Shown piece by piece: positions 7,788-31,067 of a stretch of 64,000 nt of DNA. The translations under genes and the position numbers were made by a program. Numbering within the stretch: position 1 is the first letter of the stretch; every line of letters starts with the position of its first letter. Source of the DNA: a virus (lineage: Duplodnaviria; Heunggongvirae; Uroviricota; Caudoviricetes); IMG/VR virus record IMGVR_UViG_3300032320_002688, positions 1-64,000 of that record. The stretch is one strand, 5' to 3'. The notes under the pieces are model-generated. The model had not been told where the DNA came from and did not search any database. It saw only the letters and a list, made by a program, of their open reading frames with translations.

Positions 7788-8471
7788 TTAAAAATATTTT
7801 GAGAAAAGTCTATAATCTTTTTCGTATATAGCCATGACACGTTGAATTTGTTCTGTTGTTAATGTCTCTTCAACGGTTTTCTTGAGTTCGAGTGGTGTAG
7901 AATTTTCTTTAGGAAATGGTTTAGGGCTCCATTCGCCATAAGTAAATTTCTTAGTTAATTCGGGCCACGCTTCAACTATACCCTTAATGTTATAAAAATG
8001 CAAATAATCAGGTATAATACCATCGGCCGTAGCACAATAAGTCCATTGTGGGTGAAATACATAATCTAAATCGTAAAATTGCCTCCAATAATCTTCAACA
8101 GATAATTCATCCGCGTTATGTTTTACTTTTTGTTCCAGCAATGTAAGTGTTGTTTCTAAATTATTTAGGTACTGATGTGTGCCTGGTCTATTTTCTTCTG
8201 GGTTCCATTCTTGGCGTTCTAATATACCAGTATTCCATTGTAGATACCACCATGCTGAAACAAAACGTTCAACTGGTTCTCTAACTATAGCCATGCAATA
8301 ATGAGTACGAGTAAAATCGTCTCCATTCCACAATATGTCTTTAAGTAATCTGTGGTCATGAACTCTATATTGTCTTCCATTTGGCCACTCATAAACTAAT
8401 GCGGCGTGAATTGATTCTGAGGCGTTTTTAGGAATGGCTAATGCGAATGCATCACAATGATCAAATCTCAT
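7788..8471 (-). CDS. sulfotransferase-family protein
   Basis: IPKNASESI (5'-PSB-like) and VREPVERFVSAWWY (3'-PB motif RxPxxRxxS). Confidence 0.6.
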   Translation of the reverse strand: MRFDHCDAFALAIPKNASESIHAALVYEWPNGRQYRVHDHRLLKDILWNGDDFTRTHYCMAIVREPVERFVSAWWYLQWNTGILERQEWNPEENRPGTHQYLNNLETTLTLLEQKVKHNADELSVEDYWRQFYDLDYVFHPQWTYCATADGIIPDYLHFYNIKGIVEAWPELTKKFTYGEWSPKPFPKENSTPLELKKTVEETLTTEQIQRVMAIYEKDYRLFSKYF

Positions 8472-8686
8472 TATTTATTTTGTTTTAGTCCGTATTTAAT
8501 CCACTTATACCAAATACGTTCATGAATGTAATATTGGATTGGTTTATAGACTAATTCAGCAACACCAAATGCTGCTCCAACTTTTATAGATCCACTTATT
8601 AACCACATTAATCCAAAACCGATTATTGTGCTTATTATTCTGTAACTAATTGTTTTAGCTATATGTCGTTTTCTTTCTACTATCAT
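8471..8686 (-). CDS. small membrane protein
   Basis: 71 aa, two hydrophobic helices. Confidence 0.4.
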   Translation of the reverse strand: MIVERKRHIAKTISYRIISTIIGFGLMWLISGSIKVGAAFGVAELVYKPIQYYIHERIWYKWIKYGLKQNK

Positions 8687-8901
8687 TTTATTATACAGAT
8701 TTTATTCTTCCACTCAATCATATTAGCGTTACAAGACATGTGCCACTTCTCACCTACACCTTCAATCATATCTTTTGTAGTAAATGAAGGGCAGAATATT
8801 CTTACCTCAGAAGCATGATGTTCTACTCCATCAATAAGAACTCTCCATTGCAATTCATCTTCTGGTTTAGCATCTGTTTTATATCTTAATTTTACTATCA
8901 T
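8683..8901 (-). CDS. hypothetical protein
   Basis: 72-aa ORF with 4-nt overlaps on both sides. Confidence 0.4.
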   Translation of the reverse strand: MIVKLRYKTDAKPEDELQWRVLIDGVEHHASEVRIFCPSFTTKDMIEGVGEKWHMSCNANMIEWKNKICIIK

Positions 8902-9296
8902 AGTTTACCCTCTTCTCTCATTTGCTCTCTAATTTTAGTAGCTGATATTTCTTTTACTTCAGTTGGTGGTTCATGTTCAATAATATCGTATCCAACACCA
9001 CGTCCAAAATTAACTGAATCAATATCAGGTATAATCATTACTCTAACTCTACCTTCATCTATAAGATCAGCTAGTTCTTTATGTAAATTAGACATTACTT
9101 CAATAGAGTACCATGGATTTTTTTCATCGGGTTCTATATCGCGAATACAGATTAATACGTTTTTGTCTTCATTTAATCGTTGATCTATAAGCCAACGATG
9201 TCCTGGATGCCAGGGTTGCCAGCGACCAATAAACATTGAGTATTGTTTACCCTCAATCTTTAACTTGGGATCTGCTGTTGCGTGGTAAATTGCCAT
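8898..9296 (-). CDS. HxGH nucleotidyltransferase (cytidylyl/adenylyltransferase superfamily)
   Basis: FIGRWQPWHPGHRWL (HxGH) and C-terminal ISATKIRE (ISxT-IR motif). Confidence 0.6.
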   Translation of the reverse strand: MAIYHATADPKLKIEGKQYSMFIGRWQPWHPGHRWLIDQRLNEDKNVLICIRDIEPDEKNPWYSIEVMSNLHKELADLIDEGRVRVMIIPDIDSVNFGRGVGYDIIEHEPPTEVKEISATKIREQMREEGKL

Positions 9297-9750
9297 AACT
9301 AGATAATTGTGTTAATAGTTTGTAGTAACAATCTGTTAGTGTCTCGGTAGTGTCCATATCAATATAATTAGAAACAGGAGGTTCATAATCAGATACGAAA
9401 TAAGTTTCACGTCCTCTTTCCACAGAAGTATGGACATAAATTTCAACAAGATTGTTTTGCATTTCAATTTTAAATTCATCTCTAAGATCTTTATACGGAG
9501 CCACTAGAGCAACTACCACATGACAACCTTGGTAGTGGAGGAATTTAGCTATGTCTTGAGCACGCTTGATATTTTCAACTCTTCCCTCTTTTCCGTAATT
9601 AACATTCTTGAAAATATCTCTTAATTGGTCGCCATCAATAAACGCTGTTTTAACGTCTTGAGTTTGTAAATAACCGAGTAATTCTTTACCTAAAGTTGTT
9701 TTACCATGACCTGGTTGACCAGTAAACCAATATATCATACTTTTATTCAT
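9253..9750 (-). CDS. cysC: adenylylsulfate (APS) kinase
   Basis: MIYWFTGQPGHGKTT, FIDGDQLRDIF, RVENIKRAQDIAKF...VVVALVAPYKDLRDE align with CysC WFTGLSGSGKST / LDGDNVRHGL / RKENIRRVGEVA; start probably at an internal Met (track ORF extends to 9792). Confidence 0.75.
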   Translation of the reverse strand: MNKSMIYWFTGQPGHGKTTLGKELLGYLQTQDVKTAFIDGDQLRDIFKNVNYGKEGRVENIKRAQDIAKFLHYQGCHVVVALVAPYKDLRDEFKIEMQNNLVEIYVHTSVERGRETYFVSDYEPPVSNYIDMDTTETLTDCYYKLLTQLSSYGNLPRNSRSQVKD

Positions 9751-10123
9751 TTGAAGATATAGTTTTATTACAACCATATCTTTGTTTAACATCTTTTAAA
9801 TAAGCTATATCTATTTTTTTATAGCCTGTTTCTTCTTTTTCCAACCAATAACTACATTGTTTAACATATCGAATATAGTGTTCTAATTGTTCCATCACCT
9901 GTTTAGGGCGAGGATGTTTAATATTAAACTTATATTCTGCTAATAAACATGGTTGAAGAGAATTAAGGAGATCAGTAATCTCCTTTTTTCTCAATTCTTT
10001 AATGTCTACTTTGTTTCCAAAAACTGCTTCTAAATAAGTGGGGTCAAAATTCTTCTCCTTAAGCTTGTCTGATTTGTCAAGCTTGTTGAATAATTTCTTC
10101 GTTATATCGTTTATGTGATTCAA
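9743..10123 (-). CDS. hypothetical protein
   Basis: 126-aa ORF. Confidence 0.45.
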   Translation of the reverse strand: MNHINDITKKLFNKLDKSDKLKEKNFDPTYLEAVFGNKVDIKELRKKEITDLLNSLQPCLLAEYKFNIKHPRPKQVMEQLEHYIRYVKQCSYWLEKEETGYKKIDIAYLKDVKQRYGCNKTISSNE

Positions 10124-10136
10124 TACCCCAAGTCAT

Positions 10137-10409
10137 TTATTTTTTCTTTTGTGAAGAAGCGGGTTTTTTAGCTGCTGGTTTTGCTGCTGGTTTTTTAGTA
10201 GCTGGTTTTTTAGCTGGTGTAGGTTTTGCTTTAATTACCTCAGCAGTAGCAGGAGCAGATGTTTCATATCCTACTTCATGTGGGTAAGGGCATTTGTCTT
10301 CGTCAGCATAAATACCTTTCTTTTCAGCCTTGGCTTTCTGAACATTCTTAACTAAATAAGCTACAGTAAAAATAGCAATAGCAAGAATCAAAATTGTAAT
10401 CAATTGCAT
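10137..10409 (-). CDS. membrane-anchored protein with Lys/Ala/Pro-rich tandem repeats
   Basis: N-terminal TM helix; C-terminal KKPATKKPAAKPAAKKPA repeats; repetitive DNA gctgctggtttt/agctggtttttt. Confidence 0.5.
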   Translation of the reverse strand: MQLITILILAIAIFTVAYLVKNVQKAKAEKKGIYADEDKCPYPHEVGYETSAPATAEVIKAKPTPAKKPATKKPAAKPAAKKPASSQKKK

Positions 10410-10446
10410 AAATGTTTATTTTTGTTCTATTATAAATATGTATATA

Positions 10447-10626
10447 TTATGTTTTATTATAAATCTTCTCGTTGATATGACGTTGCAATGCCGGTGAAAA
10501 AAAACGACAACCATACGCAGCTTTTACTTCACGTTGCTCAGCTAATTCGTCATAACGAATTTGCATTAATCGTCTTCTCCTAGTTTTGATAGGTGGGTCA
10601 ATATAACTGTTTGGGCTTTTTCTCAT
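10447..10626 (-). CDS. small Arg-rich ORF (about 59 aa, below track cutoff)
   Basis: MRKSPNSYIDPPIKTRRRRLMQ... translated by eye from the reverse strand in an otherwise empty 235-bp gap. Confidence 0.25.
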   Translation of the reverse strand: MRKSPNSYIDPPIKTRRRRLMQIRYDELAEQREVKAAYGCRFFSPALQRHINEKIYNKT

Positions 10627-10644
10627 ACTGTAAATGTATGAAAA

Positions 10645-10929
10645 CTAATTTAATGTTCCAAATCTTTTAGCTAAAAATGGTTTCCAATTCTTTAGAATAG
10701 CAGTTACATAACTTAATTTAGGAGGAATTGTATTATTGATTAATAATTTCATAATCATTTCCTTCATATAAGAACGAGGCTCAATGTGGAAGTATTTATC
10801 TTCCCCAGCAGGAACCCATCGTTCAATTAATTCATCTATAGTTGATTCTATTTCGGGAGTAATATTCATACGAAAATAAATATGCCCGGTGTAGAAACAC
10901 CAGGCATTTAAAATTAAAGGTATGAACAA
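10645..10929 (-). CDS. hypothetical protein
   Basis: 94-aa ORF. Confidence 0.4.
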   Translation of the reverse strand: MFIPLILNAWCFYTGHIYFRMNITPEIESTIDELIERWVPAGEDKYFHIEPRSYMKEMIMKLLINNTIPPKLSYVTAILKNWKPFLAKRFGTLN

Positions 10930-11319
10930 TTATCCCACCTCCTCAGGTGAGAAAACTTCGTAATAACACATCCACTTATACTTGCGTTCCATTCTAACGG
11001 CTTCGCGTTCGTGAGGATGGTTTTTATAAGAATATATTTTATCTAACTTATAATATTCACGTTTTATACTATGAAAACGATAGTGAGTAAACTCGTGAAT
11101 TATAGTTCCAATGAAGCCCATAAACGTTCTATGTTTAAGAGCAAACACATGAATTTCATTTTTCCATGGATCATAATAGCCAGCAAATTGTCTCTTTGTT
11201 CTATGAAACACTAGTTTAGGATAAGCTCCGTTTATATGGCTATTACCAAACATTTTCTTACACCACTCAAATACTTTTACTGCGCTTCTTCTTGTTATGT
11301 CCTTCTTTCCCATTTTCAT
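10930..11319 (-). CDS. SprT-like / HExxH zinc-metallopeptidase-motif protein
   Basis: TIIHEFTHYRFH (HExxH). Confidence 0.5.
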   Translation of the reverse strand: MKMGKKDITRRSAVKVFEWCKKMFGNSHINGAYPKLVFHRTKRQFAGYYDPWKNEIHVFALKHRTFMGFIGTIIHEFTHYRFHSIKREYYKLDKIYSYKNHPHEREAVRMERKYKWMCYYEVFSPEEVG

Positions 11320-11608
11320 AACTCAACAAATTTATAAGGTTTTTAATTTCAGTACATTCCTCATATAACTCTTGTTCAGCATATATTGCTAAACAAGTAT
11401 CTAGGGCCATGTTCCACTGTTCGCGACTTAAAGAGAATCCGTATATATCGTTACTTCCCTTCTCTTTAAATTCAAACGCCGTTACTTCACTCTTTTGTTT
11501 ACTATAACCTTGTTTAATTGAGCCATAAATGGCCTCAGCAACCTCAATATCTTTTGATTCAACGCGCTCCCTAAATTCGGCAAAAGTACTACCTTCAAAT
11601 AGTTTCAT
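11267..11608 (-). CDS. hypothetical protein
   Basis: 113-aa ORF. Confidence 0.45.
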   Translation of the reverse strand: MKLFEGSTFAEFRERVESKDIEVAEAIYGSIKQGYSKQKSEVTAFEFKEKGSNDIYGFSLSREQWNMALDTCLAIYAEQELYEECTEIKNLINLLSYENGKEGHNKKKRSKSI

Positions 11609-11631
11609 ACGCGTTAATTTTATATAAATAT

Positions 11632-12066
11632 CTACGCCATTTTACTTTTGTAGATTCGTTGTTTTTTCTGCCAATTATTTTTTAATGACTGAACCATTTT
11701 ATCGGCGGCACATAATTTATTATTGTAATCCGTTTGTTCCTGAAGTTCAGCTTTTTTAGCTTCAACGTGTTTACAAGTTCGCTTATGTCCACTCCACCCA
11801 AACGAATGACACTCACAAGTCCAACGATTACCATCTAATTCAACAAGGTATTTTTTACCTTTACTACCATCTACTTCCCACTCAAGGTGAATTTCGAGTG
11901 CTGGATTTGGAGTATGTCTATTTTCCTTTCTAAACCATTTAACATCATTATAAGTGGTTTCCATAGGGACATCCTGCCATTTACCATCACATATTAAATA
12001 CTTTTTACCTGGTTCCTGAATCGATTCGAACAGAACTGGTACTGTAAATGAATGAGCAATAATCAT
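11632..12066 (-). CDS. SWIM zinc-finger protein
   Basis: WTCECHSFGWSGHKRTCKH (CxCxnCxH). Confidence 0.5.
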   Translation of the reverse strand: MIIAHSFTVPVLFESIQEPGKKYLICDGKWQDVPMETTYNDVKWFRKENRHTPNPALEIHLEWEVDGSKGKKYLVELDGNRWTCECHSFGWSGHKRTCKHVEAKKAELQEQTDYNNKLCAADKMVQSLKNNWQKKQRIYKSKMA

Positions 12067-12093
12067 AACCTTAATTTTTAATTTAAATAAAGA

Positions 12094-12128
12094 TACGAAG
12101 TGAGGGTTGGGTATCCAACCCTCTTCGT
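12094..12128 (-). terminator. strong rho-independent terminator hairpin
   Basis: ACGAAGTGAGGGTTGG-GTA-TCCAACCCTCTTCGT, about 15-bp stem, then T-rich tract on the minus strand. Confidence 0.6.
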
Positions 12129-12139
12129 ACTTATATTTA

Positions 12140-12952
12140 CTAAGCTGCTACGAATTGTTCAGCAATTTCCCACAATTGGCCGTTCAAAGCCATATCTTGT
12201 TGGAAGTTTTTAATTGGTCTTGCTTTACGCAATTTACCTTCTTCATTAACATATGTAAATGAACCACCTACAATTTTCTCTTGAACGCGGTTAAATACTT
12301 TCCATAATGTATTACCACTATCTTCGTTACGTTCAATAGCAAGTAACTCTTCAAGTTCAATACCTGTAACTTTAGCACCTCCGAAACGAGCATCAATTGC
12401 TTGTTGAGCAAATGCTTTCATTTCGTTTTCAGTCATTGTTTTAGTAATAAACATATTCATACGCTCAACAATTGAAGGTAAACCATCTACGAATTGCTTA
12501 ATATTGGTTTGTAATTGGTCAAATGAATAACCCATATGACGAATATTAAACGAACCAAAATCATGAGATTTAATTACTAATCCATTAGAACATACTAAAC
12601 GGAAAATACCAGCTTCAAACTTAAATGATGATTTTCCATCATGGCTATTTGTAAGCAATACTTGAGGATACATTGTACCATCATCACCATTGATTTCGAT
12701 ACTTGGATTAAAGAATTTAATCAGGTGTTTTTGGAAACCCGAATTTTTACGGCTGCGAACCATTGTCGCTTGACCTACTTTCCAACCTAACGCATCCATA
12801 TCGTCAATAATTTTTGACGTTGGGATAAACGTATAATTTTCTGATACTGCGTTAGACGCTTTGGTCTGATACGCTACTGGGCAAATTGCCTTAATTTCAT
12901 TACGCTCCATTCCTTGGAGATTCATCACTGAGGTTTGATTTCTGTTGTTCAT
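12140..12952 (-). CDS. DUF932-like phage/plasmid protein
   Basis: LLTNSHDGKSSFKFEAGIFRLVCSNGL resembles the DUF932 nSHDGSS core; recalled, not searched. Confidence 0.45.
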   Translation of the reverse strand: MNNRNQTSVMNLQGMERNEIKAICPVAYQTKASNAVSENYTFIPTSKIIDDMDALGWKVGQATMVRSRKNSGFQKHLIKFFNPSIEINGDDGTMYPQVLLTNSHDGKSSFKFEAGIFRLVCSNGLVIKSHDFGSFNIRHMGYSFDQLQTNIKQFVDGLPSIVERMNMFITKTMTENEMKAFAQQAIDARFGGAKVTGIELEELLAIERNEDSGNTLWKVFNRVQEKIVGGSFTYVNEEGKLRKARPIKNFQQDMALNGQLWEIAEQFVAA

Positions 12953-12990
12953 AACATTTATTTTTTAATTTTTATACCTTAACTGGCAAG

Positions 12991-13004
12991 CGTAAAATTA
13001 CGAC
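12991..13004 (-). promoter_or_regulatory. near-palindromic motif CGTAA-AA-TTACG (site 2)
   Basis: identical 14-mer to 5407..5420, upstream of the DUF932-like gene. Confidence 0.4.
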
Positions 13005-13061
13005 AGCACTCTGAGGTAGCCAAGCTTCCCTCGAGTACTTTCAAAGACTTTTATAGAACGC

Positions 13062-13084
13062 GCGAAATCAACGCGCTATGTATT
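13062..13084 (-). promoter_or_regulatory. conserved intergenic element, site 2
   Basis: gcgaaatcaacgcgctatgtatt versus gaaaatcaacgagctatacatt at 5589..5610. Confidence 0.35.
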
Positions 13085-13089
13085 AAAAA

Positions 13090-14034
13090 TTATGCATATC
13101 CATATGTAATCATGTCATCTCTGTACACATCTTCAATAAGACCACGGTGATCTTCGAGTATTGATCCGAACTGTTCATGAATTTTAATTTTTTCTTCATT
13201 ATAACTCTTAATAAATGAGTCATATGTTGGATATTTAGCTTGAAATTCTAGGTCTGGATTTAAACCTGGTTGTATGAATTGTTTTAATTCCCATTCATGT
13301 TCGTAAGGCATAGTTTTAATAGAATCCATATTACTTTTCTCAATAAAAATAGTTAAGGGAGAAGGATCTAGATTAGGAAAGGCATTTTTAGTAACATCTA
13401 TTCCTCCCCATTTACTTAATTCATCTTTAAAATCATCCATCCATACATCCATTGTTTCAAAAGGTAAAATTCTTAAAGTATATGGACGTGGGGTTTTTAG
13501 GGATAAAAAATTAACTTGAGGCCATGCATGAATAGGTATGCTACATAAATTAACATTATCCCATCCTTTAGATTTAATAATATGTAAATTGGTAATAAGT
13601 AAGTGGAGTTGTTCTTCACTACTATGTCTATCATTTACAAACCAAGAATCAGTATAAAAACTTTGATAAGGATTTCTGGAAACAGGAGTTATTTGTGGGC
13701 GTTTAAATCTTTTGTGAAGTAAAGTTTCATAGGCAAATGATTTAAATCGATCAAATGGATTTCTAACCATAGTAAAGAAAAAATAATCATGAAAATCAGG
13801 AATATGCTTATAAATACTTACTAAGGGTTCATGTCTGTTTGTTGAAAACGAAACATCACCATTTAATTTCTGCTTTGCTGATGGGTGAAGGGGGCATAAA
13901 TCTATGTTCCATAAAAGATTTACATTACTAGAATGAGGAAGGGAAGAAAATGACCTTATTAAAAATTCGGTCATTGAACTAGATCCTGCTTTAGGAACAT
14001 CTATGAATACAGTTTTTATTGCAGAAATAATCAT
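13090..14034 (-). CDS. sulfotransferase-family protein
   Basis: IDVPKAGSSSM (PAPS 5'-phosphosulfate-binding-like PKxGSS) and MVRNPFDRFKSFAYE (RxPxxRxxS 3'-PB motif). Confidence 0.65.
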   Translation of the reverse strand: MIISAIKTVFIDVPKAGSSSMTEFLIRSFSSLPHSSNVNLLWNIDLCPLHPSAKQKLNGDVSFSTNRHEPLVSIYKHIPDFHDYFFFTMVRNPFDRFKSFAYETLLHKRFKRPQITPVSRNPYQSFYTDSWFVNDRHSSEEQLHLLITNLHIIKSKGWDNVNLCSIPIHAWPQVNFLSLKTPRPYTLRILPFETMDVWMDDFKDELSKWGGIDVTKNAFPNLDPSPLTIFIEKSNMDSIKTMPYEHEWELKQFIQPGLNPDLEFQAKYPTYDSFIKSYNEEKIKIHEQFGSILEDHRGLIEDVYRDDMITYGYA

Positions 14035-15394: not shown

Positions 15395-15843
15395 GCTTTT
15401 AAAACAAAGTCTTGGAAGAATATAACTAATGAATCTAATGGGATTAAAAAGGCAGCTGCGTTTTTTTCAGGTGCGTCTAAATCTCTGTCTAATTCAAGTT
15501 TATATTTTGCAAATTTAGGAGATAATTGAACTGCTAAATCGTTTGAAATTTTATCTAATTCTTCTTTGGATATTAATTCTCTTTCTCTACCATTTTCTAA
15601 TGGGAAGAATTTAATTTTGATACCTTTTTTAGTTTCATTTCTATTAACATCAAACGTTACGTTGAATTGTTGATCGCCTAATGTTGCTTTATATGTGCCA
15701 ATTTCATTTATTGTAGGGTTGTACATGCTTTCATCATTAGCATCTGATTCATCCTCATTAATAAAAAATTCTTTTAAACTATATTTTCCCATTATTATGT
15801 ATTTGTAATAAATATTTAAGATACTTGAGAATCGCCTCTCCAC
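15391..15843 (-). CDS. hypothetical protein
   Basis: 150-aa ORF. Confidence 0.45.
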   Translation of the reverse strand: MERRFSSILNIYYKYIIMGKYSLKEFFINEDESDANDESMYNPTINEIGTYKATLGDQQFNVTFDVNRNETKKGIKIKFFPLENGRERELISKEELDKISNDLAVQLSPKFAKYKLELDRDLDAPEKNAAAFLIPLDSLVIFFQDFVLKA

Positions 15844-16211
15844 ACGCGGTATGAATCGCTATCAAAGTGTTCAGTTGATACTTCAAATACGATACCATCG
15901 GTAAGTGCTTCTAATTGATGTGGTTGACCAGGTAATTGTCTTACACTATCACCTTCACGTAGATGTTTTTCAACCACCTCAGCAGTTTCAGTGTTAATAT
16001 ATCTGTATATAAATTCACCTTCTTTAACATACCATGTTTCATCTTTAATCATATGGTAATGCATACTGAATTTAGCACCTGCTTTAAAACAAAGCAATTT
16101 ACCACAATACAAATCATTATTTTCAAATATGATTTCATGTCCCCATCCTTTAGGCACATTACACTCTTTACATTCTTTAGCATTAAATACTAATGGTTGC
16201 TTATAAGCCAT
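15816..16211 (-). CDS. cupin-domain protein (possible sugar isomerase/epimerase)
   Basis: FSMHYH...DETWYVKEGE cupin motifs; sits in the sugar locus. Confidence 0.5.
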   Translation of the reverse strand: MAYKQPLVFNAKECKECNVPKGWGHEIIFENNDLYCGKLLCFKAGAKFSMHYHMIKDETWYVKEGEFIYRYINTETAEVVEKHLREGDSVRQLPGQPHQLEALTDGIVFEVSTEHFDSDSYRVWRGDSQVS

Positions 16212-16641
16212 AATTCATAATTTTAGTTGTTGAATATTTTTCTTGTCGAGGCCAAAATTTTATATTTTTAAGATATTGTCTTCCTACTATTGGTTTATTT
16301 TGATAATCACTTCCTATAACATAAACATCGGGATTGATTGCCCTTATCAAGGTAATAAGTGATTCATCTGAATCAAATATAAACACATTAGAAGTGTAAT
16401 TTAATGCTTCTAACATTTCTTTACGTTCATAAACATTATGGAATGGTCTATTATCACCTTTTTTATCCTTAACACGTTCATCTGAATCTATTGCTACATA
16501 TAGTTTACCAAACGAAGCAGCAAACTCAAGCAATTTAAAATGTCCATAATGTAAAACATCAAACGTACCATTTACAAATACTTTTGTTTCATTAATAAGT
16601 TTCATATTCAATTTCGGTTGCACCCAGACCCCAATTTTCAT
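16201..16641 (-). CDS. sugar-1-phosphate nucleotidyltransferase, HldE/RfaE domain II-like
   Basis: VFVNGTFDVLHYGHFKLL matches HldE domain II FTNGCFDILHAGHVSYL. Confidence 0.7.
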   Translation of the reverse strand: MKIGVWVQPKLNMKLINETKVFVNGTFDVLHYGHFKLLEFAASFGKLYVAIDSDERVKDKKGDNRPFHNVYERKEMLEALNYTSNVFIFDSDESLITLIRAINPDVYVIGSDYQNKPIVGRQYLKNIKFWPRQEKYSTTKIMNYGL

Positions 16642-16699
16642 CGTTGTCTGTTTCGTTAAAAAATTCTACATAACGCCAAGCGTCATTGTATGCTTTAGC

Positions 16700-17488
16700 T
16701 TAACCCTTAAATGCACCTTTGTTTTCAAGATCGGCAACACGTGTTCCATCTGCTTTAGTAAAATATGCTCCGTGTTCCATATGAAATAAAGCGGGTTGAT
16801 AAGCAACAGCTAATTTAAAGTCATTTATTGCTGCTTTCTTTTGAATATTAGTATCACAAAAACATTGATACAACATTGATTCTTCAAATCCCCTAATCCA
16901 ATGCCATACTTTAGAATGTGCTATTTGAAAGTCACCACAGCAGTTAATTAATGAATATTTGTCATTAGGAGTAACTTGAGCTGGAAAATGACGTTCTGGG
17001 ATTGTATTACATAATTCATCTCTTAATTCACGCCATCCATCTTTACCATGTTTGTAAACTAATTCTTTAGGTGCTTCACGTCTTGAAACAGTAACAAATG
17101 ATTCGCTTCCCATTTCATTAATTAATTTATCTAATTCTTCACGTTTAGGAGGTATAATATCAAGGTTAGTTGATACAATAAAATCAGTTGATAAACGTCT
17201 TATACCAATATTTCTGCTTATTGCTTCATTACATTGTTGTGCTGTAGGGTCATTATGTGTTAATATAGAAGCGATGTTTGGAGGTATCATGATATGTTTC
17301 AATTTACCTGTTTGAGGTAATTGATCCTTAATTTCCCAAAAGAACGAACCCGATGGTGAGTTCCAATCGATATAAATTACTTCATCAAATGTATCCAACA
17401 TTGATCTGAAGTGGATAATACCACGTTCAAAATCTTTGTACCCATCATTTCTATTTACTACTACTGCTCCTACTGACATAATATTCAA
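16700..17488 (-). CDS. hypothetical protein (possible glycosyltransferase)
   Basis: 262 aa, located inside the glycan locus. Confidence 0.4.
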   Translation of the reverse strand: MNIMSVGAVVVNRNDGYKDFERGIIHFRSMLDTFDEVIYIDWNSPSGSFFWEIKDQLPQTGKLKHIMIPPNIASILTHNDPTAQQCNEAISRNIGIRRLSTDFIVSTNLDIIPPKREELDKLINEMGSESFVTVSRREAPKELVYKHGKDGWRELRDELCNTIPERHFPAQVTPNDKYSLINCCGDFQIAHSKVWHWIRGFEESMLYQCFCDTNIQKKAAINDFKLAVAYQPALFHMEHGAYFTKADGTRVADLENKGAFKG

Positions 17489-18332
17489 TTGTTTTTCTTA
17501 ATCCATCTTCCAATGGTGTAAATTGGAAATGTGTTAAACATGTGTTAATCATTTTTTTCGATATCGAACCTACAAATTGATTAGTATCAAACTTAATACT
17601 ATTAAAGTCATAACCAACTATATCACAAATGGTTTGAGCATAATCTCTAATTGAGTAATCTTGTCCTGAAGACAAGTTACATATTTGTGGAGTCCAAGTT
17701 AATGCTTGTTTTATTATTTTAACAGCGTCATCAATATAAATTAATTCACGTCGTTGGTATCCGTCACCCCATAAAACAACCTCACCACCATTTTGTTTTG
17801 CATCAACTATTTTTCTAATTAAATCAAATATAAAATGTCTATCATCTAATTCATAATTGGGTCCATATAATGTAGAAGGAATAAGGTAGGTATATTGCAT
17901 ACCATATTCGTCATTCATTGCCCTACAACCAATTAATAAATTACGCTTAATGTTACCATATACTTCGTATCCAGGTTCAGCTTCACCTTTCAAATAATTA
18001 AATTCTGTTTTTTCAACATTAGCATCGTAACCACAAGATGAACCAAATGTAATTACTTTAGCATTTGGGAAACAATTTTTCCATCCTTGAAAAAAAGCGT
18101 TATTAATGTCTGTATTAATTAGGAATTGTTCGCCTGAATGGTTCTGACAATAACCACCAGCCGCCGTTTTAACGGCCATATGGATTATATAATCATAATT
18201 TTGTCCGCAATCGAACAATTTACCTTTCATATCGTGGCTATTAGCTACCTCAATATCATATTCAGATTGTAAGGCAGGTACTAATGCTCTACCTACAAAC
18301 CCCGTTCCACCTGTAATTAATATCTTTTTCAT
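17451..18332 (-). CDS. NAD(P)-dependent sugar-nucleotide epimerase/reductase (SDR family)
   Basis: KILITGGTGFVGRAL Rossmann motif; GDP-fucose synthase / dTDP-sugar reductase-like. Confidence 0.65.
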   Translation of the reverse strand: MKKILITGGTGFVGRALVPALQSEYDIEVANSHDMKGKLFDCGQNYDYIIHMAVKTAAGGYCQNHSGEQFLINTDINNAFFQGWKNCFPNAKVITFGSSCGYDANVEKTEFNYLKGEAEPGYEVYGNIKRNLLIGCRAMNDEYGMQYTYLIPSTLYGPNYELDDRHFIFDLIRKIVDAKQNGGEVVLWGDGYQRRELIYIDDAVKIIKQALTWTPQICNLSSGQDYSIRDYAQTICDIVGYDFNSIKFDTNQFVGSISKKMINTCLTHFQFTPLEDGLRKTIEYYVSRSSSSK

Positions 18333-18333
18333 A

Positions 18334-18972
18334 TTAGTCTGTAAGTCGTCCCATTTTTAAATCCACATCACATTTTACACCACACAAATGGGATTCGTTT
18401 CTATAAAATATAGTCATGCCGTTATTACCTTTTTGTGTTTTATGTTTCCACTCTGGATTAACTGCTAACCAGTCATCAACTGCTTTTGATTGATCAGGAA
18501 AACAATCCCAAGGATCCATATCATGTGTTATTATAACACCTGTTGGTGACAATAAAGTAGCATAATTATCAAATTCAAATTTAGTATCTACATAATTATG
18601 GCTTGTATCAGTAAAGAATATATCAACTTTACCTACTAATTCACTTAATTGTGGAAATACTGCTTCAGTAGTACCTTGTTTGAATGTCCAAAAAGGTAAT
18701 TGTTCTCTAAGTTGTTGAAAATTGTGTTTTGACTCTGGTAAGTTTTGGTAGTCAGCCATATCCACATCTACTAGTTTGGCACCTACTTTATAAGCGCCTA
18801 AGGCAAAAGCAGCTCCTGAATGTCCATCTCTAATACCAGCATGAACTATTACTTTTGGTTTAATTGCTTCTACTAACTCTAGTAAGTAAGGTAAATGACC
18901 TGCTATGTCACTTTTACTTCTACTTTTTTTCTCATTAAAGAGATCTTCTAATTGTTCTAAAATATTTTCCAT
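18334..18972 (-). CDS. class I SAM methyltransferase-like (Methyltransf_24/CmcI-like)
   Basis: VIVHAGIRDGHSGAAFALG...DIFFTDTSHNY pattern. Confidence 0.45.
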   Translation of the reverse strand: MENILEQLEDLFNEKKSRSKSDIAGHLPYLLELVEAIKPKVIVHAGIRDGHSGAAFALGAYKVGAKLVDVDMADYQNLPESKHNFQQLREQLPFWTFKQGTTEAVFPQLSELVGKVDIFFTDTSHNYVDTKFEFDNYATLLSPTGVIITHDMDPWDCFPDQSKAVDDWLAVNPEWKHKTQKGNNGMTIFYRNESHLCGVKCDVDLKMGRLTD

Positions 18973-18973
18973 G

Positions 18974-19639
18974 TTATTTAAAAATTACTTTGAATGCTGC
19001 TGGATGATATCGAGTGTCTGAGAACCCTAAGTATTCAACATCCTCAATTTTATCTTCCATTTGGTTTAAAAATTCTTTAAATGCTTTATATTCATGATGT
19101 TCCCAATCAGGATAATTAAAAAATTCATCGAATACTAAAACACATTGTTTACTAAAATATGGTTTCATATTATCAAACACACATTTAGTAGATGAATACA
19201 AGTCAGCATCTAAGTGAAGTAAACTAACTCGTTCAATTTTAGTCTCATTAAGAAACTTAGGTAATGTTTCATCAAACCAACCTATTACTAATTCCATTTT
19301 TTCATTTGGTTCAAATGGAGGAACACCCTGGGTATCAAATTTACCTTTTTCATTATGTTCATTCCATTCTTCAGGCAAACCCTCGAATGAATCAAACCCG
19401 TACACTTTATCTTTTAATGTAGTAAGAAATTCTAATGTTTTGCCACTATATACCCCAAACTCAAACCAATCACCATCAGTATCAGCTTCTTTAGCTGCGC
19501 TCATTAAACAATTAGTATGAGCAACTAAATATCTCATTTTAGGTTTAATATCCTGTTCAAATTCTAAAGGTGTAGCACCTAATATTTTATCTCCTAATGT
19601 CATCTTACAAGTTTGTAAAGTTATTATTTGACGCATCAA
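18974..19639 (-). CDS. TylF/MycF-family sugar O-methyltransferase
   Basis: SLLHLDADLYSSTKCVF matches the TylF LHLDxDLYxST motif. Confidence 0.6.
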   Translation of the reverse strand: MMRQIITLQTCKMTLGDKILGATPLEFEQDIKPKMRYLVAHTNCLMSAAKEADTDGDWFEFGVYSGKTLEFLTTLKDKVYGFDSFEGLPEEWNEHNEKGKFDTQGVPPFEPNEKMELVIGWFDETLPKFLNETKIERVSLLHLDADLYSSTKCVFDNMKPYFSKQCVLVFDEFFNYPDWEHHEYKAFKEFLNQMEDKIEDVEYLGFSDTRYHPAAFKVIFK

Positions 19640-20576
19640 TTATTGGATACGCTTTAAGTAATTCTTGTATTCCGTCTTCTAGTGAATATGATGGTTTCCA
19701 ACCCAATGCTTCTAATTTATCGTTAGAAACTATATAGTTGCGTTTATCTGGGTCTTCATTTATTTCAGACTCAGCTATATAAAAATCAGGAATGAATTGT
19801 TTAATCGTTTCACATAATTCTTTCTTACTGATGTTAGCTGTACTTAAACCAACGTTATATGGTTGGCCTTTCATTGTATTAAAGTTATCAATAGCAAATA
19901 AAAATGCTCCAACTACGTCTCTGATATGAATGAAGTTACGTTTGAAGTGTGATTCGAATAGTACGATGTATTTTTCTTTAAATGCTTTATATGTAAAGTC
20001 ATTTACTAATAAATCTAATCTCATTCTTGGAGACATACCAAACACAGTAGCTAATCTAAGTGTTACAGCGTTACCTCTTTGTAATAATGCTTCTTCAGCT
20101 TTAACTTTAGTAACACCATACAATGAAATAGGTTTCAAAGGTGTTTCTTCAGTACAATAAAGATCAGATTGACCAATACCATAACCACTATTAGTTGTGG
20201 GGTAAATGATTTTTTGATCATCTCTGGTATTACGAGCTAACCATTCAAGTGCTGTTTGGTTTGTATCTTGAGTTAACTCAGGATATTTTTTACAAGCAGG
20301 CATTCCTACTATACAAGCTAAAGGAATAATGATATCTGCTTCTTTAACTAATGGCTCCATCATTTTCCAATCACGAACATCACCTTTGATAAATTTAAAG
20401 TTATCTAAATGACAATATTGAGTTAATGATGTATTTTTATACATCAAATTATCTACAACAGTAACGTCGTAATTTCTGTTTATTAGTGAATCTACTAATA
20501 CGGAGCCAATGTAACCTGCTCCTCCGGTTACTAATACTTTATCCATGTTGTTTAATTTGTTTAATAACATCATCAA
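19605..20576 (-). CDS. NAD-dependent nucleotide-sugar epimerase/dehydratase (SDR)
   Basis: KVLVTGGAGYIGSVLVDSL; catalytic YxxxK region. Confidence 0.7.
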   Translation of the reverse strand: MMMLLNKLNNMDKVLVTGGAGYIGSVLVDSLINRNYDVTVVDNLMYKNTSLTQYCHLDNFKFIKGDVRDWKMMEPLVKEADIIIPLACIVGMPACKKYPELTQDTNQTALEWLARNTRDDQKIIYPTTNSGYGIGQSDLYCTEETPLKPISLYGVTKVKAEEALLQRGNAVTLRLATVFGMSPRMRLDLLVNDFTYKAFKEKYIVLFESHFKRNFIHIRDVVGAFLFAIDNFNTMKGQPYNVGLSTANISKKELCETIKQFIPDFYIAESEINEDPDKRNYIVSNDKLEALGWKPSYSLEDGIQELLKAYPIIDASNNNFTNL

Positions 20577-21141
20577 CGCTAGGTAAAAATGCTTCTACAG
20601 TGTCTTTTAATTCTAATAATTTTGCTGATTTATCTCTTTCAGATAAAATTGGTTTATCAATAGGCCAAGTAATATCTAAAACCGGATCATCCCATCTAAC
20701 AGTAAATTGATTTTCAGAGCCTTTATAGTATTCAGATTGTTTATAACTGAAGATACCAAATTCACTCATTACTAAATGTCCATTAGCACACCCAGCAGGA
20801 ATTAATACTTGACTTCTGTTTTTGTCGTTAATTGGGATTTGAATCCATTTCAAGTAACTTGGAGATTCAGGTCTCATATCGACAACGGTAGCTAACATAC
20901 TACCATACAAGCATTGAACTAATTTCCATGTGTGTTTATCACCATGTAATCCTCTCAATGTGTGTCTAACTGATGTACTAACGTCATCTTGTACCCATCT
21001 AATAGGGGCACCTGCGTTGTACTTAAATACTTCATAAAACTGTTGGTTAAATGTTTCTATATACTCCCCTCTATAGTCATAGTGTTTGAATGGGGTAATA
21101 ATAGCTACATCTTTAATTACATCACTAAATTTATATTCCAT
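20539..21141 (-). CDS. dTDP-4-dehydrorhamnose 3,5-epimerase-like (RmlC cupin)
   Basis: RGLHGDKHTWKLVQCLYGSMLATVVDMRPESPSY...IPAGCANGH matches RmlC conserved blocks. Confidence 0.65.
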   Translation of the reverse strand: MEYKFSDVIKDVAIITPFKHYDYRGEYIETFNQQFYEVFKYNAGAPIRWVQDDVSTSVRHTLRGLHGDKHTWKLVQCLYGSMLATVVDMRPESPSYLKWIQIPINDKNRSQVLIPAGCANGHLVMSEFGIFSYKQSEYYKGSENQFTVRWDDPVLDITWPIDKPILSERDKSAKLLELKDTVEAFLPSVDDVIKQIKQHG

Positions 21142-21896
21142 TATAATTCATTTGGGTTAACAATCGTTGTTCCTTTTCTTTGTACTACATAAGTAGCGCA
21201 TTTGTTAGCATAGTTAATTGCTTTAACAATATCACCTGTTTGGCAAAACTTAACAGCTAAACCAGCTAAAAATGTATCTCCAGCTCCAGTATTATCCTTA
21301 ACGTCTACTTTTTGAACAGGATAAACTTTACCATCATGAATACATCCTTGACTACTTATAGTTACAATAGTTTTATCTAATATTTTTTGTGATACATGTC
21401 CTCTACATTTAGCAAATTCACTTTCGTTTATTTTAATGTAGCTAATTTTATCAGCAAATATATTATTGATTACTTTTTTAGTATCTAAAAATGTTATGTT
21501 AGAATTTTCAGCTATGTAAGTGATATCATCTTCTTCTAAAAATCCTTTACAATAATCACTTATAACAACAGCATCAAATGCTCTAAAATTTATTTTTTCT
21601 AAATCAGTAACTCGAGCTATATGTTCCTCTCCAGTATCAACTCTAACAAACATATGGTTTGTTTTAGAGTCAACATACCTGGTTTTATGTATTTGTTCTT
21701 TATTAGTTAAAGTAGTTACTTCTGCTCCTAATGCCTCAATGTTTCTAACTACATTACCAGCCATACCTGGATATGTAATTGTTTCTGCGGGTACCATTAC
21801 TGGTACTGGAGCATCAGGACACATTCTAAGACATTTACCATAAACGTAAACGTCCATACAACTATCTCCAACTACTAATATTTTAGGTTTTTTCAT
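21141..21896 (-). CDS. PfkB-family sugar kinase, HldE/RfaE domain I-like
   Basis: ILVVGDSCMDVY N-terminus; C-terminal NTGAGDTF anion-hole motif. Confidence 0.7.
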   Translation of the reverse strand: MKKPKILVVGDSCMDVYVYGKCLRMCPDAPVPVMVPAETITYPGMAGNVVRNIEALGAEVTTLTNKEQIHKTRYVDSKTNHMFVRVDTGEEHIARVTDLEKINFRAFDAVVISDYCKGFLEEDDITYIAENSNITFLDTKKVINNIFADKISYIKINESEFAKCRGHVSQKILDKTIVTISSQGCIHDGKVYPVQKVDVKDNTGAGDTFLAGLAVKFCQTGDIVKAINYANKCATYVVQRKGTTIVNPNEL

Positions 21897-21897
21897 A

Positions 21898-22299
21898 TTA
21901 CCAACTAATTTCCCAATCTTTAAAATCGGCTGCTAAACAATCTATTTTATAATCTTTTCTACCACCAACTACTTCTTGAATTTTGTTTTTAGCGGTGTTT
22001 CTAATTCCATTTAAACCATGAGTTAATTCTAGGTTATTACCATCTTTAATTCCCTTACGATAATTTGATTCGTTATGCCAAATGTGTAAGTTCATTTGTG
22101 ATAATACTACAATCGCTCTGATTGTCTCGGCTGTTACTTTTCCATTTTGTTCATCCAACAAGATTTGAATGTCATGTACTATGTCGTTAATTTCTTGAGC
22201 GTATTCATCTTTATGATCAGCAATGAATACCTCTTTGAGTTGACTAATAGATAATCTGTCTACTAGTTCTGATAATGTGGGTAAATATTTTCTTTCCAT
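21898..22299 (-). CDS. hypothetical protein
   Basis: 133-aa ORF. Confidence 0.45.
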   Translation of the reverse strand: MERKYLPTLSELVDRLSISQLKEVFIADHKDEYAQEINDIVHDIQILLDEQNGKVTAETIRAIVVLSQMNLHIWHNESNYRKGIKDGNNLELTHGLNGIRNTAKNKIQEVVGGRKDYKIDCLAADFKDWEISW

Positions 22300-22301
22300 T
22301 C

Positions 22302-23784: not shown

Positions 23785-23788
23785 AATG

Positions 23789-24250: not shown

Positions 24251-24304
24251 ACTATATCTAAATTATAAGTGTTATTTGAATAGGTGAATATTACTCCACC
24301 TGTA

Positions 24305-25597: not shown

Positions 25598-25600
25598 ATT

Positions 25601-30935: not shown

Positions 30936-31022
30936 GCGGAGAGACAGGGATTCGAACCCCAGATACCCTTTCAAGTATTTCGGTTTTCAAGACCGACGCA
31001 TTCAACCGCTCTGCCATCTCTC
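30936..31022 (-). tRNA. tRNA-Ser (anticodon UGA), type II with long variable arm
   Basis: reverse complement GGAGAGATGGCAGAGCGGTTGAATGCGTCGGTCTTGAAAACCGA...GGGGTTCGAATCCCTGTCTCTCCG; 7-bp acceptor stem; anticodon loop CTTGAAA; closely resembles E. coli tRNA-Ser(UGA). Confidence 0.85.
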
Positions 31023-31067
31023 CGTCGTGAATTACTTCACTGTAACTGAATCAGCCTTAACAGTTGA

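Follow-up and report, generated by a model that had tools for sequence, protein, structure and literature searches.

A predicted sulfation operon with a shortened APS kinase and an NMNAT-like nucleotidyltransferase in a large freshwater T4-like phage

The window analyzed here, a stretch of 64,000 nucleotides from virus record IMGVR_UViG_3300032320_002688, derives from a large, freshwater, T4-like phage and contains five overlapping genes on the minus strand between positions 9792 and 7788 (Table 1). These genes are arranged in the order kinase, nucleotidyltransferase (NTase), 72-aa ORF, DUF2061 and sulfotransferase ST1, with an overlap at every junction, and constitute a single overlapping operon. 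An earlier note on this DNA had proposed a sulfation module of four genes (the kinase, the NTase and two sulfotransferases, ST1 and ST2); the minus strand carries all four of them at the positions given in that note, and the 44-nt overlap claimed between the kinase and the NTase is exact (9253-9296). Its gene list had nevertheless overlooked the DUF2061 gene (8471-8686) and the 72-aa ORF (8683-8901). The latter overlaps both the NTase and the DUF2061 genes by 4 nt, has no match in Pfam, PHROG or NCBIfam, and has homologues at the equivalent position in six related loci. The start of ST1 and the stop of the DUF2061 gene overlap by 1 nt.

Table 1. Features of the predicted sulfation locus and its surroundings (positions in the window).
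Feature	Coordinates	Strand	Family or database matches
Shortened (mini) APS-kinase-like P-loop kinase	9253..9792	-	PF01583 and PDB matches
132-aa HxGH nucleotidyltransferase (NTase), NMNAT/PPAT-like; proposed APS-forming adenylyltransferase	8898..9296	-	
72-aa ORF inside the operon, overlapping both neighbors	8683..8901	-	
DUF2061 small membrane protein, two predicted TM helices	8471..8686	-	PF09834
ST1, sulfotransferase of the Sulfotransfer_2 family, last gene of the operon	7788..8471	-	PF03567
ST2, second sulfotransferase-like protein, 314 aa, outside the operon	13090..14034	-	PF03567
Neighboring glycan-biosynthesis island	15816..27037	-	Pfam matches

In the Pfam check suggested by the earlier note, the kinase passed the APS_kinase model (PF01583; E=8.3e-22, 78.3 bits, cut-off 21.1), and its sequence matches in the PDB are exclusively APS kinases (22 of 22; best match 2yvu, 4.5e-14). 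The NCBIfam adenylyl-sulfate kinase models score it at 78-85 bits, under their cut-offs of 127-139, so that its description as "confident CysC-like" holds as to family while the word confident is slightly too strong. The ORF opens at 9792 and translation probably starts at Met15 (9750), the start chosen in the earlier note, which lies 2 nt past the stop of the upstream ORF; the other candidate is Met19 (9738). The P-loop (GQPGHGKT) and the sequences DGDQLR, YGKEGRVEN and VAPYKDLR align with the corresponding motifs of 2yvu, 8a8h and 2gks, and are conserved at levels of at least 75-95% across 48 viral members of the family. The P-loop, with the pattern GxxGxGK(S/T), and the motifs DGDxxR, (F/Y)..(D/G)R..N and (I/V)xP(Y/H)...R are presumably those that contact Mg-ATP and APS in the P. 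chrysogenum and PAPSS1 structures. The lid, which in APS kinases reads RDxKGLYKKARxGxIxxFTGID, is shortened, with about 15 residues absent and ERGRETYFVSDYEPP left. Also, the Pfam and PDB alignments end near residue 110-128, and family members are about 145-165 aa long versus about 180-200 aa for APS kinases. Judged by its sequence, the kinase is a member of the APS kinase family in a shortened form with a truncated lid.

The NTase carries the ATP motif GRWQPWHPGH and the C-terminal motif ISATKIR, both near-invariant in its family. It has the nucleotidyltransferase alpha/beta fold common to Sat, and its best structural matches are adenylyltransferases. Its assignment as a Sat-type ATP sulfurylase was rejected, given that it scores 12.7 bits against PF01747 (cut-off 24.3) and that the Sat motifs QxRNPxHxxH and GRDHAG are not found in it: HxxH is kept but QxRN is absent, and GRGVGY (GR(G/D)VGY in the family) stands in the place of GRDHAG, with GR alone in common. 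A search of the PDB with the NTase family profile recovered no ATP sulfurylase at E<10. In the PAPS synthases, i.e. PAPSS1/2 (APS kinase N-terminal, ATP sulfurylase C-terminal) and the Aquifex and fungal Sat-CysC proteins, the Sat catalytic domain spans about 200 aa, bears both of these motifs and is accompanied by a PUA-like N-domain, whereas the cassette NTase consists of about 115 aa with GRWQPWHPGH and GR(G/D)VGY, falls below the PF01747 threshold and, at 132 aa in total, has no PUA-like N-terminal domain. The earlier note had held the encoded proteins sufficient to make PAPS; the kinase part of this claim is borne out at the family level, but the claim also requires the NTase to be an ATP sulfurylase, and the NTase falls short of the profile and motifs of the Sat family.

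The best sequence and structure match of the NTase is the archaeal/NadM-type NMNAT (MJ0541, MTH150, NadM-Nudix), with which it shares the GRxQPxHxGH, NPW/NPF and C-terminal ISxTxIR motifs. Unlike these enzymes, however, it possesses two near-invariant arginines, R52 and R99, and apparently lacks about 25 residues after the IPxxDI strand, as judged from a MAFFT alignment with an M. thermautotrophicus NMNAT sequence. The two arginines fit a small anionic substrate. By sequence and fold the NTase is a shortened NMNAT/PPAT-like adenylyltransferase and no relative of Sat.

A count of NTase relatives gave 364 in viral contigs and about 8000 protein clusters; contrary to what the earlier note had supposed, the arrangement is not unusual in uncultured phages. 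Of 54 non-redundant viral loci, 48 have the kinase next to the NTase. DUF2061 comes after the NTase in 45 of the same loci, and an order of kinase, NTase and DUF2061 kept in 45-48 of 54 cases indicates an association far beyond chance. A sulfotransferase-like ORF occurs within 8 kb in 32 of the 54, and in 14 it is immediately next to the cassette. The commonest sulfotransferase neighbor is of another family, Sulfotransfer_3 (E=1e-17). Canonical APS kinases of full length (PF01583, E=1e-40 to 1e-69) also occur as fusions with the NTase, which may form either the N- or the C-terminal part. In one of these fusions, P0281, the kinase domain scores 257 bits with the NCBIfam apsK equivalog model, well above the cut-off of 138.7. 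Fused APSK-NTase genes are followed by a Sulfotransfer_2 gene in one phage and by DUF2061 in a T4-like phage contig; the fusions in Xylella and Stenotrophomonas phages have no annotated sulfotransferase nearby. In cellular genomes, the series Sulfotransfer_5, CysC and NTase occurs in Marinimicrobia, and NTase-APSK fusions precede Sulfotransfer_1 in Planctomycetota and an inositol-monophosphatase-family (CysQ-like) protein in Methanosarcinales, or lie next to ST-GT fusion proteins and a polysaccharide ABC exporter in Acidobacteriota. Sat motifs are absent from every ORF of 162 related loci and of the window. The window likewise holds no CysD/CysN homologues, which occur in one of the 162 loci. 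The kinase/NTase pair is thus widespread in uncultured phages and marine bacteria, and it appears to stand in place of the usual ATP sulfurylase. Taken together, the recurrent synteny, the fusions, the sulfotransferase and CysQ-like neighbors and the missing canonical ATP sulfurylase lend good support to a sulfation module. It is only from this genomic context that we infer an ATP sulfurylase activity for the NTase.

An unlikely, though not negligible, alternative is that the operon does provide the sulfotransferases with PAPS but the kinase alone activates sulfate, acting on host APS, while the NTase serves as a regulatory or APS-channelling partner, or as a genuine NMN/NaMN adenylyltransferase maintaining NAD in infected cells. 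Many NTase family members are annotated by JGI as NMNAT or PPAT, other phages encode a canonical CysC without the NTase, and the single locus with CysD and CysN, from Acidobacteriota, has them right beside an NTase-APSK fusion, which implies that APS formation at that locus does not require the NTase. Against a role in NAD synthesis, the similarity to NMNAT is limited to the N-terminal, ATP-binding half (the best score against the NCBIfam NMNAT models TIGR01527 and NF002243 is 32.4 bits, cut-off 127, and residues 18-94 alone align), and the apparently deleted segment after the IPxxDI strand is the one that we take to make the nicotinamide contacts in the M. thermautotrophicus NMNAT structure. 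Such a role is also hard to reconcile with fusions to APS kinases in both orders and with sulfotransferase and CysQ-like neighbors. The partners of NadM-type NMNAT are Nampt or Nudix, while those of the NTase are APS kinase and sulfotransferases, and an unsystematic inspection of neighborhoods revealed neither Nampt nor Nudix beside it, in the annotation or otherwise. As for an inactive, regulatory domain, the near-invariance of the HxGH, ISxT and arginine residues in the family would be unexpected.

Both flanking sulfotransferases proposed by the earlier note score above the Sulfotransfer_2 cut-off and conserve PAPS-motif residues. ST1 matches PF03567 over residues 11-224 of 227 (E=1.3e-10, 42.3 bits, cut-off 22) and phrog_3347, 'galactose-3-O-sulfotransferase', at 4e-4. 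It displays a 5'-PSB loop (IPKNASES) and a 3'-PB motif (VREPVERFVS), and its homologues adjoin the cassette in other phages. For ST2 the PF03567 match covers the N-terminal 100 aa alone (E=8.6e-6, 26.5 bits, cut-off 22), but an HMM built from ST1-type proteins recovers it at 2.9e-21, and K15, S20, R91, P93, R96 and S99 are invariant among 13-16 homologues. A sequence search of the PDB with ST2 gave no matches, its AF2 model has a low pLDDT of 60.8, and the Foldseek matches are meaningless. The place of ST2 in the module stands as to family but not as to operon: it lies 3.3 kb upstream, with unrelated genes in between (DUF932 and a number of small ORFs that match no family), and is not part of the five-gene unit. 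An HNH endonuclease gene is located on its far side.

The glycan island that the earlier note had placed beside the cassette is real, its Pfam matches comprising cupin, CTP_transf_like, two epimerase/dehydratases, two methyltransferases, dTDP-4-dehydrorhamnose 3,5-epimerase, PfkB kinase, GT10-like, GT2 and GT4. The island is a candidate source of the sulfate acceptor, and a glycan is a reasonable target of sulfation given the genes adjoining the cassette here and in related loci.

Phage cysC has been reported from freshwater and marine viromes, and both the gene and its carriers, large freshwater phages, are of the type found here (PMC10914622). In that work it is treated as a lone gene of assimilatory sulfate reduction, whereas the kinase described here is co-operonic with an NTase, DUF2061 and a sulfotransferase. 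What is already known is therefore phage cysC as an assimilation gene; the literature searched makes no mention of cysC co-operonic with an NTase, DUF2061 or sulfotransferases, and the cassette itself is apparently undescribed there. By extension of that work, the kinase could be an auxiliary metabolic gene of assimilatory sulfate reduction, raising PAPS in the infected cell for the CysH of the host and for cysteine synthesis, with the sulfotransferases as incidental neighbors. In freshwater lakes, transcripts of cysC and cysH from phages have been reported and read as assimilatory sulfate reduction (PMC10914622; 10.1101/2020.02.13.942896). We regard this explanation as improbable for the present locus, since no CysH-type motif was found around the cassette, either in this window or across 82 viral loci (the only PP-loop matches proved to be QueC), sulfotransferases from three or more families lie directly next to the cassette far too often for incidental neighbors, and a CysQ-like phosphatase and ST-GT fusions occur beside the pair in cellular loci.

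It is less probable still, and in our view very doubtful, that the pair makes some other 3'-phosphorylated adenylylated compound, the NTase acting on a phosphate ester and the kinase on the adenosine 3'-OH, in the manner of PPAT and dephospho-CoA kinase in CoA synthesis. In its favor, the kinase of this phage is divergent, with scores under the apsK equivalog cut-offs, and in SAR11 the pair is surrounded by genes for an oxygenase, GCV_T and enoyl-CoA hydratase, a context without relation to sulfation and with no sulfotransferase within 8 kb. However, the kinase retains the motifs that presumably bind APS (DGDxxR and the aromatic..R..N motif), some of the fusion-partner kinases pass the apsK equivalog model, and sulfotransferases and CysQ are partners specific to PAPS and PAP.

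The five overlapping genes thus probably represent a phage sulfation operon, in which PAPS is made and sulfate is put on an acceptor. According to this model, the NMNAT-like mini NTase would move AMP from ATP onto sulfate to form APS, and the shortened kinase, as suggested by its family membership, would phosphorylate the 3'-OH of APS to give PAPS. ST1 and the separately encoded ST2 may then pass sulfate from PAPS to the acceptor, most likely a sugar from the adjacent glycan island, displayed on the host envelope or the virion. Through the tight overlap of the genes here, and through their natural fusion elsewhere, the kinase could draw the unfavorable activation of sulfate forward, much as happens in PAPS synthases. 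A phage making PAPS by itself would be independent of a sulfate-activation pathway that is repressible or missing in the host. A broader proposal, which we put forward tentatively and with its chances somewhat short of even, is that the NTase represents a third, hitherto unrecognized class of ATP sulfurylase beside Sat and CysDN, forming with the mini kinase a PAPS synthase of about 270 residues, either encoded by two genes or fused, with DUF2061 as a membrane partner possibly involved in sulfate entry, and that this system is the main route of glycan sulfation in uncultured aquatic phages, occurring also in abundant marine lineages, SAR406 and SAR11 among them. SAR11 is not known to possess canonical sulfate activation.

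The NodP/NodQ and NodH proteins of rhizobia and the RaxP/RaxQ and RaxST proteins of Xanthomonas form modules that decorate a secreted or surface molecule, and these likewise bring together genes for ATP-dependent sulfate activation, for an APS kinase and for a sulfotransferase that depends on PAPS. As ATP sulfurylase they have CysD/CysN, the former a PP-loop ATPase and the latter a GTPase, whereas in the phage cassette a 132-aa HxGH nucleotidyltransferase occupies that slot, the kinase is shortened and the module is phage-borne. The DUF2061 protein of the operon matches PF09834 over profile positions 1-51 of 52 (E=1.5e-16, 61 bits, cut-off 23.1). Speculatively, it is a candidate partner for sulfate entry or membrane anchoring, whose two TM helices might admit sulfate or tether the enzymes at the site of glycan assembly. 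DUF2061 genes are also found in contexts without a link to sulfur. In Mesorhizobium nod loci, as in the phage, a DUF2061 gene accompanies the module and lies between a sulfotransferase, in the nodH position, and cysD/cysN(C) (nodPQ).

All four genes previously assigned to the sulfation locus (the kinase, the HxGH nucleotidyltransferase, hereafter NTase, and the sulfotransferase-like proteins ST1 and ST2) are present exactly as described, including the 44-nt overlap of the NTase with the kinase (see table). The NTase carries the motifs GRWQPWHPGH and ISATKIR. Two genes located between the NTase and ST1 had been overlooked, namely a 72-aa ORF, which overlaps both of its neighbors by 4 nt, and a small DUF2061 membrane protein. 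All junctions from the kinase through ST1 overlap, by 1 to 44 nt, so that the five genes form a single translationally coupled operon. Promoter and terminator scans yielded nothing except one terminator-like hairpin, and NCBIfam contains no model for the NTase, DUF2061, ST1 or ST2. Homologs of the 72-aa ORF (32-40% identity) occupy the same slot in six related viral loci. ST2, counted as a module member in the earlier note, has to be set apart, being located 3.3 kb upstream of the operon, from which it is separated by DUF932 and a number of small ORFs lacking family hits, none of them related to the module. Immediately upstream of ST2 is an HNH endonuclease-like gene, which may be a mobile element that moves together with ST2; in the closest relatives (L001-L004), too, a homolog of it adjoins the ST2-like gene.

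Features of the operon and its surroundings in the window
Feature	Coordinates	Match or remark
2OG-Fe(II) oxygenase-like ORF	3319-3915	
SPFH/Band-7 membrane protein	5935-6879	PF01145, 2e-19
Terminator-like hairpin	7456-7430	
ST1	7788-8471	Sulfotransfer_2, full length, E=1.3e-10
DUF2061 membrane protein, 71 aa	8471-8686	E=1.5e-16
72-aa ORF	8683-8901	no family match
NTase	8898-9296	
Kinase	9253-9792	Pfam APS_kinase, E=8.3e-22
ST2	13090-14034	Sulfotransfer_2, first 100 residues, E=8.6e-6
HNH endonuclease-like gene	14036-14665	phrog_14736, 2e-11
Cytidylyltransferase-like enzyme, small	16201-16641	PF01467, E=3e-19
PfkB sugar kinase	21141-21896	
2OG-Fe(II) oxygenase-like ORF	30106-30681	
tRNA-Ser(TGA)	30936-31023	
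NodU/Nol-like carbamoyltransferase	31985-33616	phrog_1601, 2e-101
2OG-Fe(II) oxygenase-like ORF	33610-34284	
GroEL	34310-35956	phrog_5725, 4e-146
Family-B DNA polymerase	37891-40497	
GTP cyclohydrolase I	42989-43621	E=1.5e-47
QueC	45009-45875	E=3.6e-36
gp32-like ssDNA-binding protein	53934-54737	

The description of the kinase as CysC-like stands as far as the family is concerned, given its Pfam match and the fact that all 22 of its sequence matches in the PDB are APS kinases. It retains the P-loop, DGDxxR, Y/F..GR..N and VxPY...R motifs, which align with those of solved APS kinases, where these motifs bind Mg-ATP and APS. However, it is divergent, with a lid about 15 residues shorter than in the solved enzymes and a score under the NCBIfam cut-offs; members of the viral family measure about 145 aa. 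It is a divergent APS kinase family member that is likely to act on APS. The Pfam match of ST1 agrees with its assignment as a sulfotransferase. In the case of ST2 the assignment holds at the level of profiles, since its Pfam match is above threshold, but the fold prediction is of low confidence and a fold search on the model returned meaningless matches. ST2 is also matched by an HMM of ST1-type proteins (2.9e-21), and its PAPS-motif residues K15, S20, R91, R96 and S99 are invariant across ST2 homologs. Neither ST1 nor ST2 has sequence relatives in the PDB.

Kinship of the NTase with ATP sulfurylase (Sat) was rejected by sequence, as PF01747 remained below threshold and the family profile recovered no PDB ATP sulfurylase at E<10; structural similarity to Sat is at the superfamily level only. 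The nearest relatives are NMNATs of the archaeal/NadM type (2e-5 with the single sequence, 2.7e-11 with the family profile), matched over the N-terminal ATP-binding half only. In an alternative reading, the NTase would act as an NMNAT or as a regulatory partner, with APS supplied by the host. Compared to the Methanothermobacter thermautotrophicus NMNAT, about 25 residues that follow the IPxxDI strand are missing from the NTase family; in NMNAT structures this segment carries the nicotinamide contacts. Also, residues R25, R52, R99, R123, H30 and H33 are near-invariant in the family, and a smaller pocket lined with extra arginines would suit a small anion such as sulfate. Considering these differences together with the fusions to APS kinase, the NMNAT or regulatory role seems rather unlikely.

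Fusions and gene contexts connect the NTase to PAPS. Many of the representatives clustered at 50% identity are proteins of 250-380 aa in which the NTase forms one end or the other. Eight of the ten fusions scanned with Pfam contain an APS_kinase domain, which is canonical and full-length in seven (E=1e-40 to 1e-69) and occurs on both sides of the NTase, while the remaining two comprise one methyltransferase fusion and one protein with an unknown N-terminal part. The kinase domain of P0281, a natural NTase/APS kinase fusion, passes the NCBI apsK equivalog model (257 vs 138.7 bits). Fusion in two independent orders with bona fide APS kinase constitutes classic evidence that the two proteins catalyze consecutive steps. 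That the pair makes a different 3'-phospho-adenylylated product, by analogy with PPAT and dephospho-CoA kinase, appears very improbable given the identity of these kinase domains.

A genome scan with the NTase alignment recovered 548 relatives from at least eight phyla; of 80 loci retrieved, 69 have the kinase next to the NTase or fused to it. Carriers of the pair include a Pyrinomonadaceae genome (OZ243957.1) and SAR406 single-cell genomes. In a phage contig with terminase and portal genes an APSK-NTase fusion is followed by a Sulfotransfer_2 gene, in a T4-like phage such a fusion is followed by DUF2061, and in a 226-kb contig an NTase-APSK protein occurs within a NeuB/methyltransferase/glycosyltransferase island. 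Among cellular genomes, the order Sulfotransfer_5 (4e-48), canonical CysC and NTase was found in a Marinimicrobia single-cell genome, and NTase-APSK fusions precede Sulfotransfer_1 and a methyltransferase in Planctomycetota, precede an inositol-monophosphatase-family (CysQ-like) protein in Methanosarcinales, and have an ABC exporter and two ST-GT fusion proteins as neighbors in Acidobacteriota.

Known sulfation loci encode the ATP sulfurylase next to the APS kinase. In the loci analyzed here this slot is filled by the NTase: the Sat motifs QxRNPxHxxH and GRDHAG are found in no ORF of the 162 related loci or of the window, and CysD/CysN occurs in only one of these loci, from Acidobacteriota. 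There, CysDN lies beside an NTase-APSK fusion, and the NTase is therefore dispensable for APS formation in that locus, or redundant. Also counting against the sulfation reading, no annotated sulfotransferase is present near the fusions of cultured phages, and some phages have a canonical CysC without the NTase. In the published reading, the cassette kinase would be an auxiliary metabolic gene of assimilatory sulfate reduction, phage cysC having been counted as sulfur assimilation (PMC10914622; 10.1101/2020.02.13.942896). This appears improbable, since CysH is absent and sulfotransferases persistently adjoin the cassette. A search near the cassette for CysQ and for CysH motifs found neither. 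On balance, it is highly probable that the operon is a PAPS/sulfation module, and the chances that the NTase itself produces APS are about even; the combined statement, a sulfation module with APS made by the NTase, is moderately favored.

In the proposed scheme the NTase would convert ATP and sulfate into APS and PPi, the kinase, by virtue of its family, would convert APS into PAPS, and ST1 and ST2 would transfer the sulfate from PAPS to an acceptor, giving the sulfated product and PAP. DUF2061 might, speculatively, be a membrane partner. The cassette resembles the NodPQH and RaxPQ-ST sulfation modules, differing from them in that the place of the ATP sulfurylase is taken by a mini adenylyltransferase not homologous to it.

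Sulfate is probably transferred to a sugar, located either on the host envelope or on the virion, since ST1 and ST2 belong to the carbohydrate-type Sulfotransfer_2 (best PHROG 'galactose-3-O-sulfotransferase'), a glycan island adjoins the cassette, and glycosyltransferases, methyltransferases and carbamoyltransferases recur around the cassette elsewhere. The neighboring island, already pointed out in the earlier note, was confirmed by gene content: it encodes a cupin, a cytidylyltransferase, two epimerase/dehydratases, two methyltransferases, an RmlC-like epimerase, a PfkB kinase, and GT10-like, GT2 and GT4 glycosyltransferases. The small cytidylyltransferase-like enzyme of the island is a conventional one, differs from the cassette NTase, and makes up an HldE-like pair of sugar kinase and nucleotidyltransferase with the PfkB kinase. 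Together with the sulfotransferases and methyltransferases, the carbamoyltransferase and the three 2OG-Fe(II) oxygenase-like ORFs recall Nod-factor tailoring; one of these three ORFs is Pfam-confirmed and two are recognized only by an HMM of cassette neighbors in other phages.

The NTase family comprises about 8000 clusters at 90% identity in the protein collection and 1109 representatives at 50% clustering (490 with E<1e-10), and 364 relatives were confirmed in IMG/VR contigs. The order kinase, NTase, DUF2061 is conserved among the 82 best viral loci of these 364, which after removal of duplicates represent 54 unique NTases. Within these 54 loci the kinase is adjacent to the NTase in 48, DUF2061 is present in 45, and a sulfotransferase-like ORF occurs within 8 kb in 32 (26 of them with Pfam-backed families) and directly abuts the cassette in 14. 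The sulfotransferase found most often with the cassette, in 32 of the 82 loci, is not of the same family as ST1 (Sulfotransfer_3, E=1e-17; Sulfotransfer_1, 4e-11). Other recurrent neighbors include glycosyltransferases, FkbM methyltransferases, carbamoyltransferases, 2OG-Fe(II) oxygenases, a small HAD phosphatase, and tail sheath and tail tube genes. In 32 of the 82 loci (e.g. L013:6630-7592, L039:6624-7577) the cassette adjoins a gene for a conserved protein of about 291 aa, which contains a GGLGK motif and is absent from the window. This gene is often placed between those of Sulfotransfer_3 and the kinase. The family matches nothing in Pfam or the PDB, and its similarity to GT9 is faint (E=0.12 at best, two of 16 members).

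The arrangement had been considered unusual for a phage, which is true of cultured phages but not of uncultured ones, where it is a widespread unit. The three-gene cassette was found in no cultured phage; only a fused kinase-NTase ('kinase', phrog_10255) occurs there, in Xylella, Xanthomonas, Stenotrophomonas and Clavibacter phages. The proteins of Xylella phage Salvo (gp32, L087:5578-6324) and Stenotrophomonas phage DLP6 (L088:4590-5321), annotated as 'kinase' or 'hypothetical', are fusions of a mini APS-kinase-like domain and a mini NTase, and both phages, being culturable, would lend themselves to work on the pair. In Salvo, an annotated cysteine dioxygenase is located 4 kb upstream of the fusion.

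The pair also occurs in SAR11 bacteria, where a 135-aa APS-kinase-like gene is directly followed by a mini NTase, e.g. in Ca. Pelagibacter nBUS_30 (NZ_CP172842.1, L147:7570-8351), and holds the same position in about 40 loci (L134-L175). Its context there is core genome (Rieske oxygenase, GCV_T, HalD-like 2OG oxygenase, enoyl-CoA hydratase), and the 8 kb around it contain no sulfotransferase, which counts against the sulfation reading. SAR11 reportedly lacks the genes of assimilatory sulfate reduction and is for this reason a natural test case for the role of the pair.

The best plasmid match of DUF2061 (tblastn) lies in a Mesorhizobium nod locus, between a sulfotransferase at the nodH position and cysD/cysN (nodPQ); no other clue to DUF2061 function came from outside viruses. 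This arrangement was observed in arctic Mesorhizobium symbiosis plasmids (Mesorhizobium huakuii plasmid p_1, L083:4008-8248); a preprint records DUF2061 at that nod position with no function assigned (10.1101/2022.04.26.489235). The homolog search returned near-identical viral proteins only, with neither fusions nor cellular context, and the DUF2061 contexts of Bradyrhizobium, Chondrinema and Haloterrigena (haloarchaea) contain no sulfur genes.

Phage cysC and phage sulfotransferases are already known, each noted separately in surveys, and one paper calls the function of phage sulfotransferases unclear (PMC10580990). Within the part of the full-text literature covered, the cassette is not described, nor is the NTase presented as an enzyme of sulfate activation; a mini ATP sulfurylase, a DUF2061 role and phage-made sulfated glycans are likewise missing. 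Two enzyme types are known for sulfate activation. If the proposed reading is correct, a third, very small solution would be added, and DUF2061 would gain its first functional context. With about 1100 clusters at 50% identity, this solution is widespread, its carriers being phages, SAR406, SAR11, Planctomycetes, Acidobacteria and archaea. Also, many virome 'cysC auxiliary metabolic genes' would be signs of sulfation driven by phages, with glycans of the host envelope or the virion as the probable targets, and not of assimilatory sulfur cycling. This would change both their ecological reading and the way in which recognition between phages and hosts is studied in lakes and oceans. For the enzymatic or in-vivo making of sulfated glycans, a PAPS synthase of only about 270 residues would be of use.

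The window derives from a large T4-like phage of low GC content (about 32%), with nearly all genes on the minus strand, and encodes, besides the polymerase and other genes tabulated, a DnaB-like helicase, a UvsX-like recombinase, a clamp-loader ATPase and ribonucleotide reductase. No nucleotide-level relative of the region was found by blastn among cultured and deposited phages. PP-loop motif matches considered as CysH candidates were discarded, as they proved to be QueC. GTP cyclohydrolase I and QueC belong to the 7-deazaguanine (preQ0) pathway, which is known to occur in phages whose DNA carries 7-deazaguanine modifications, and in some related loci QueC is encoded directly upstream of the kinase (e.g. 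L038:6779-7573).
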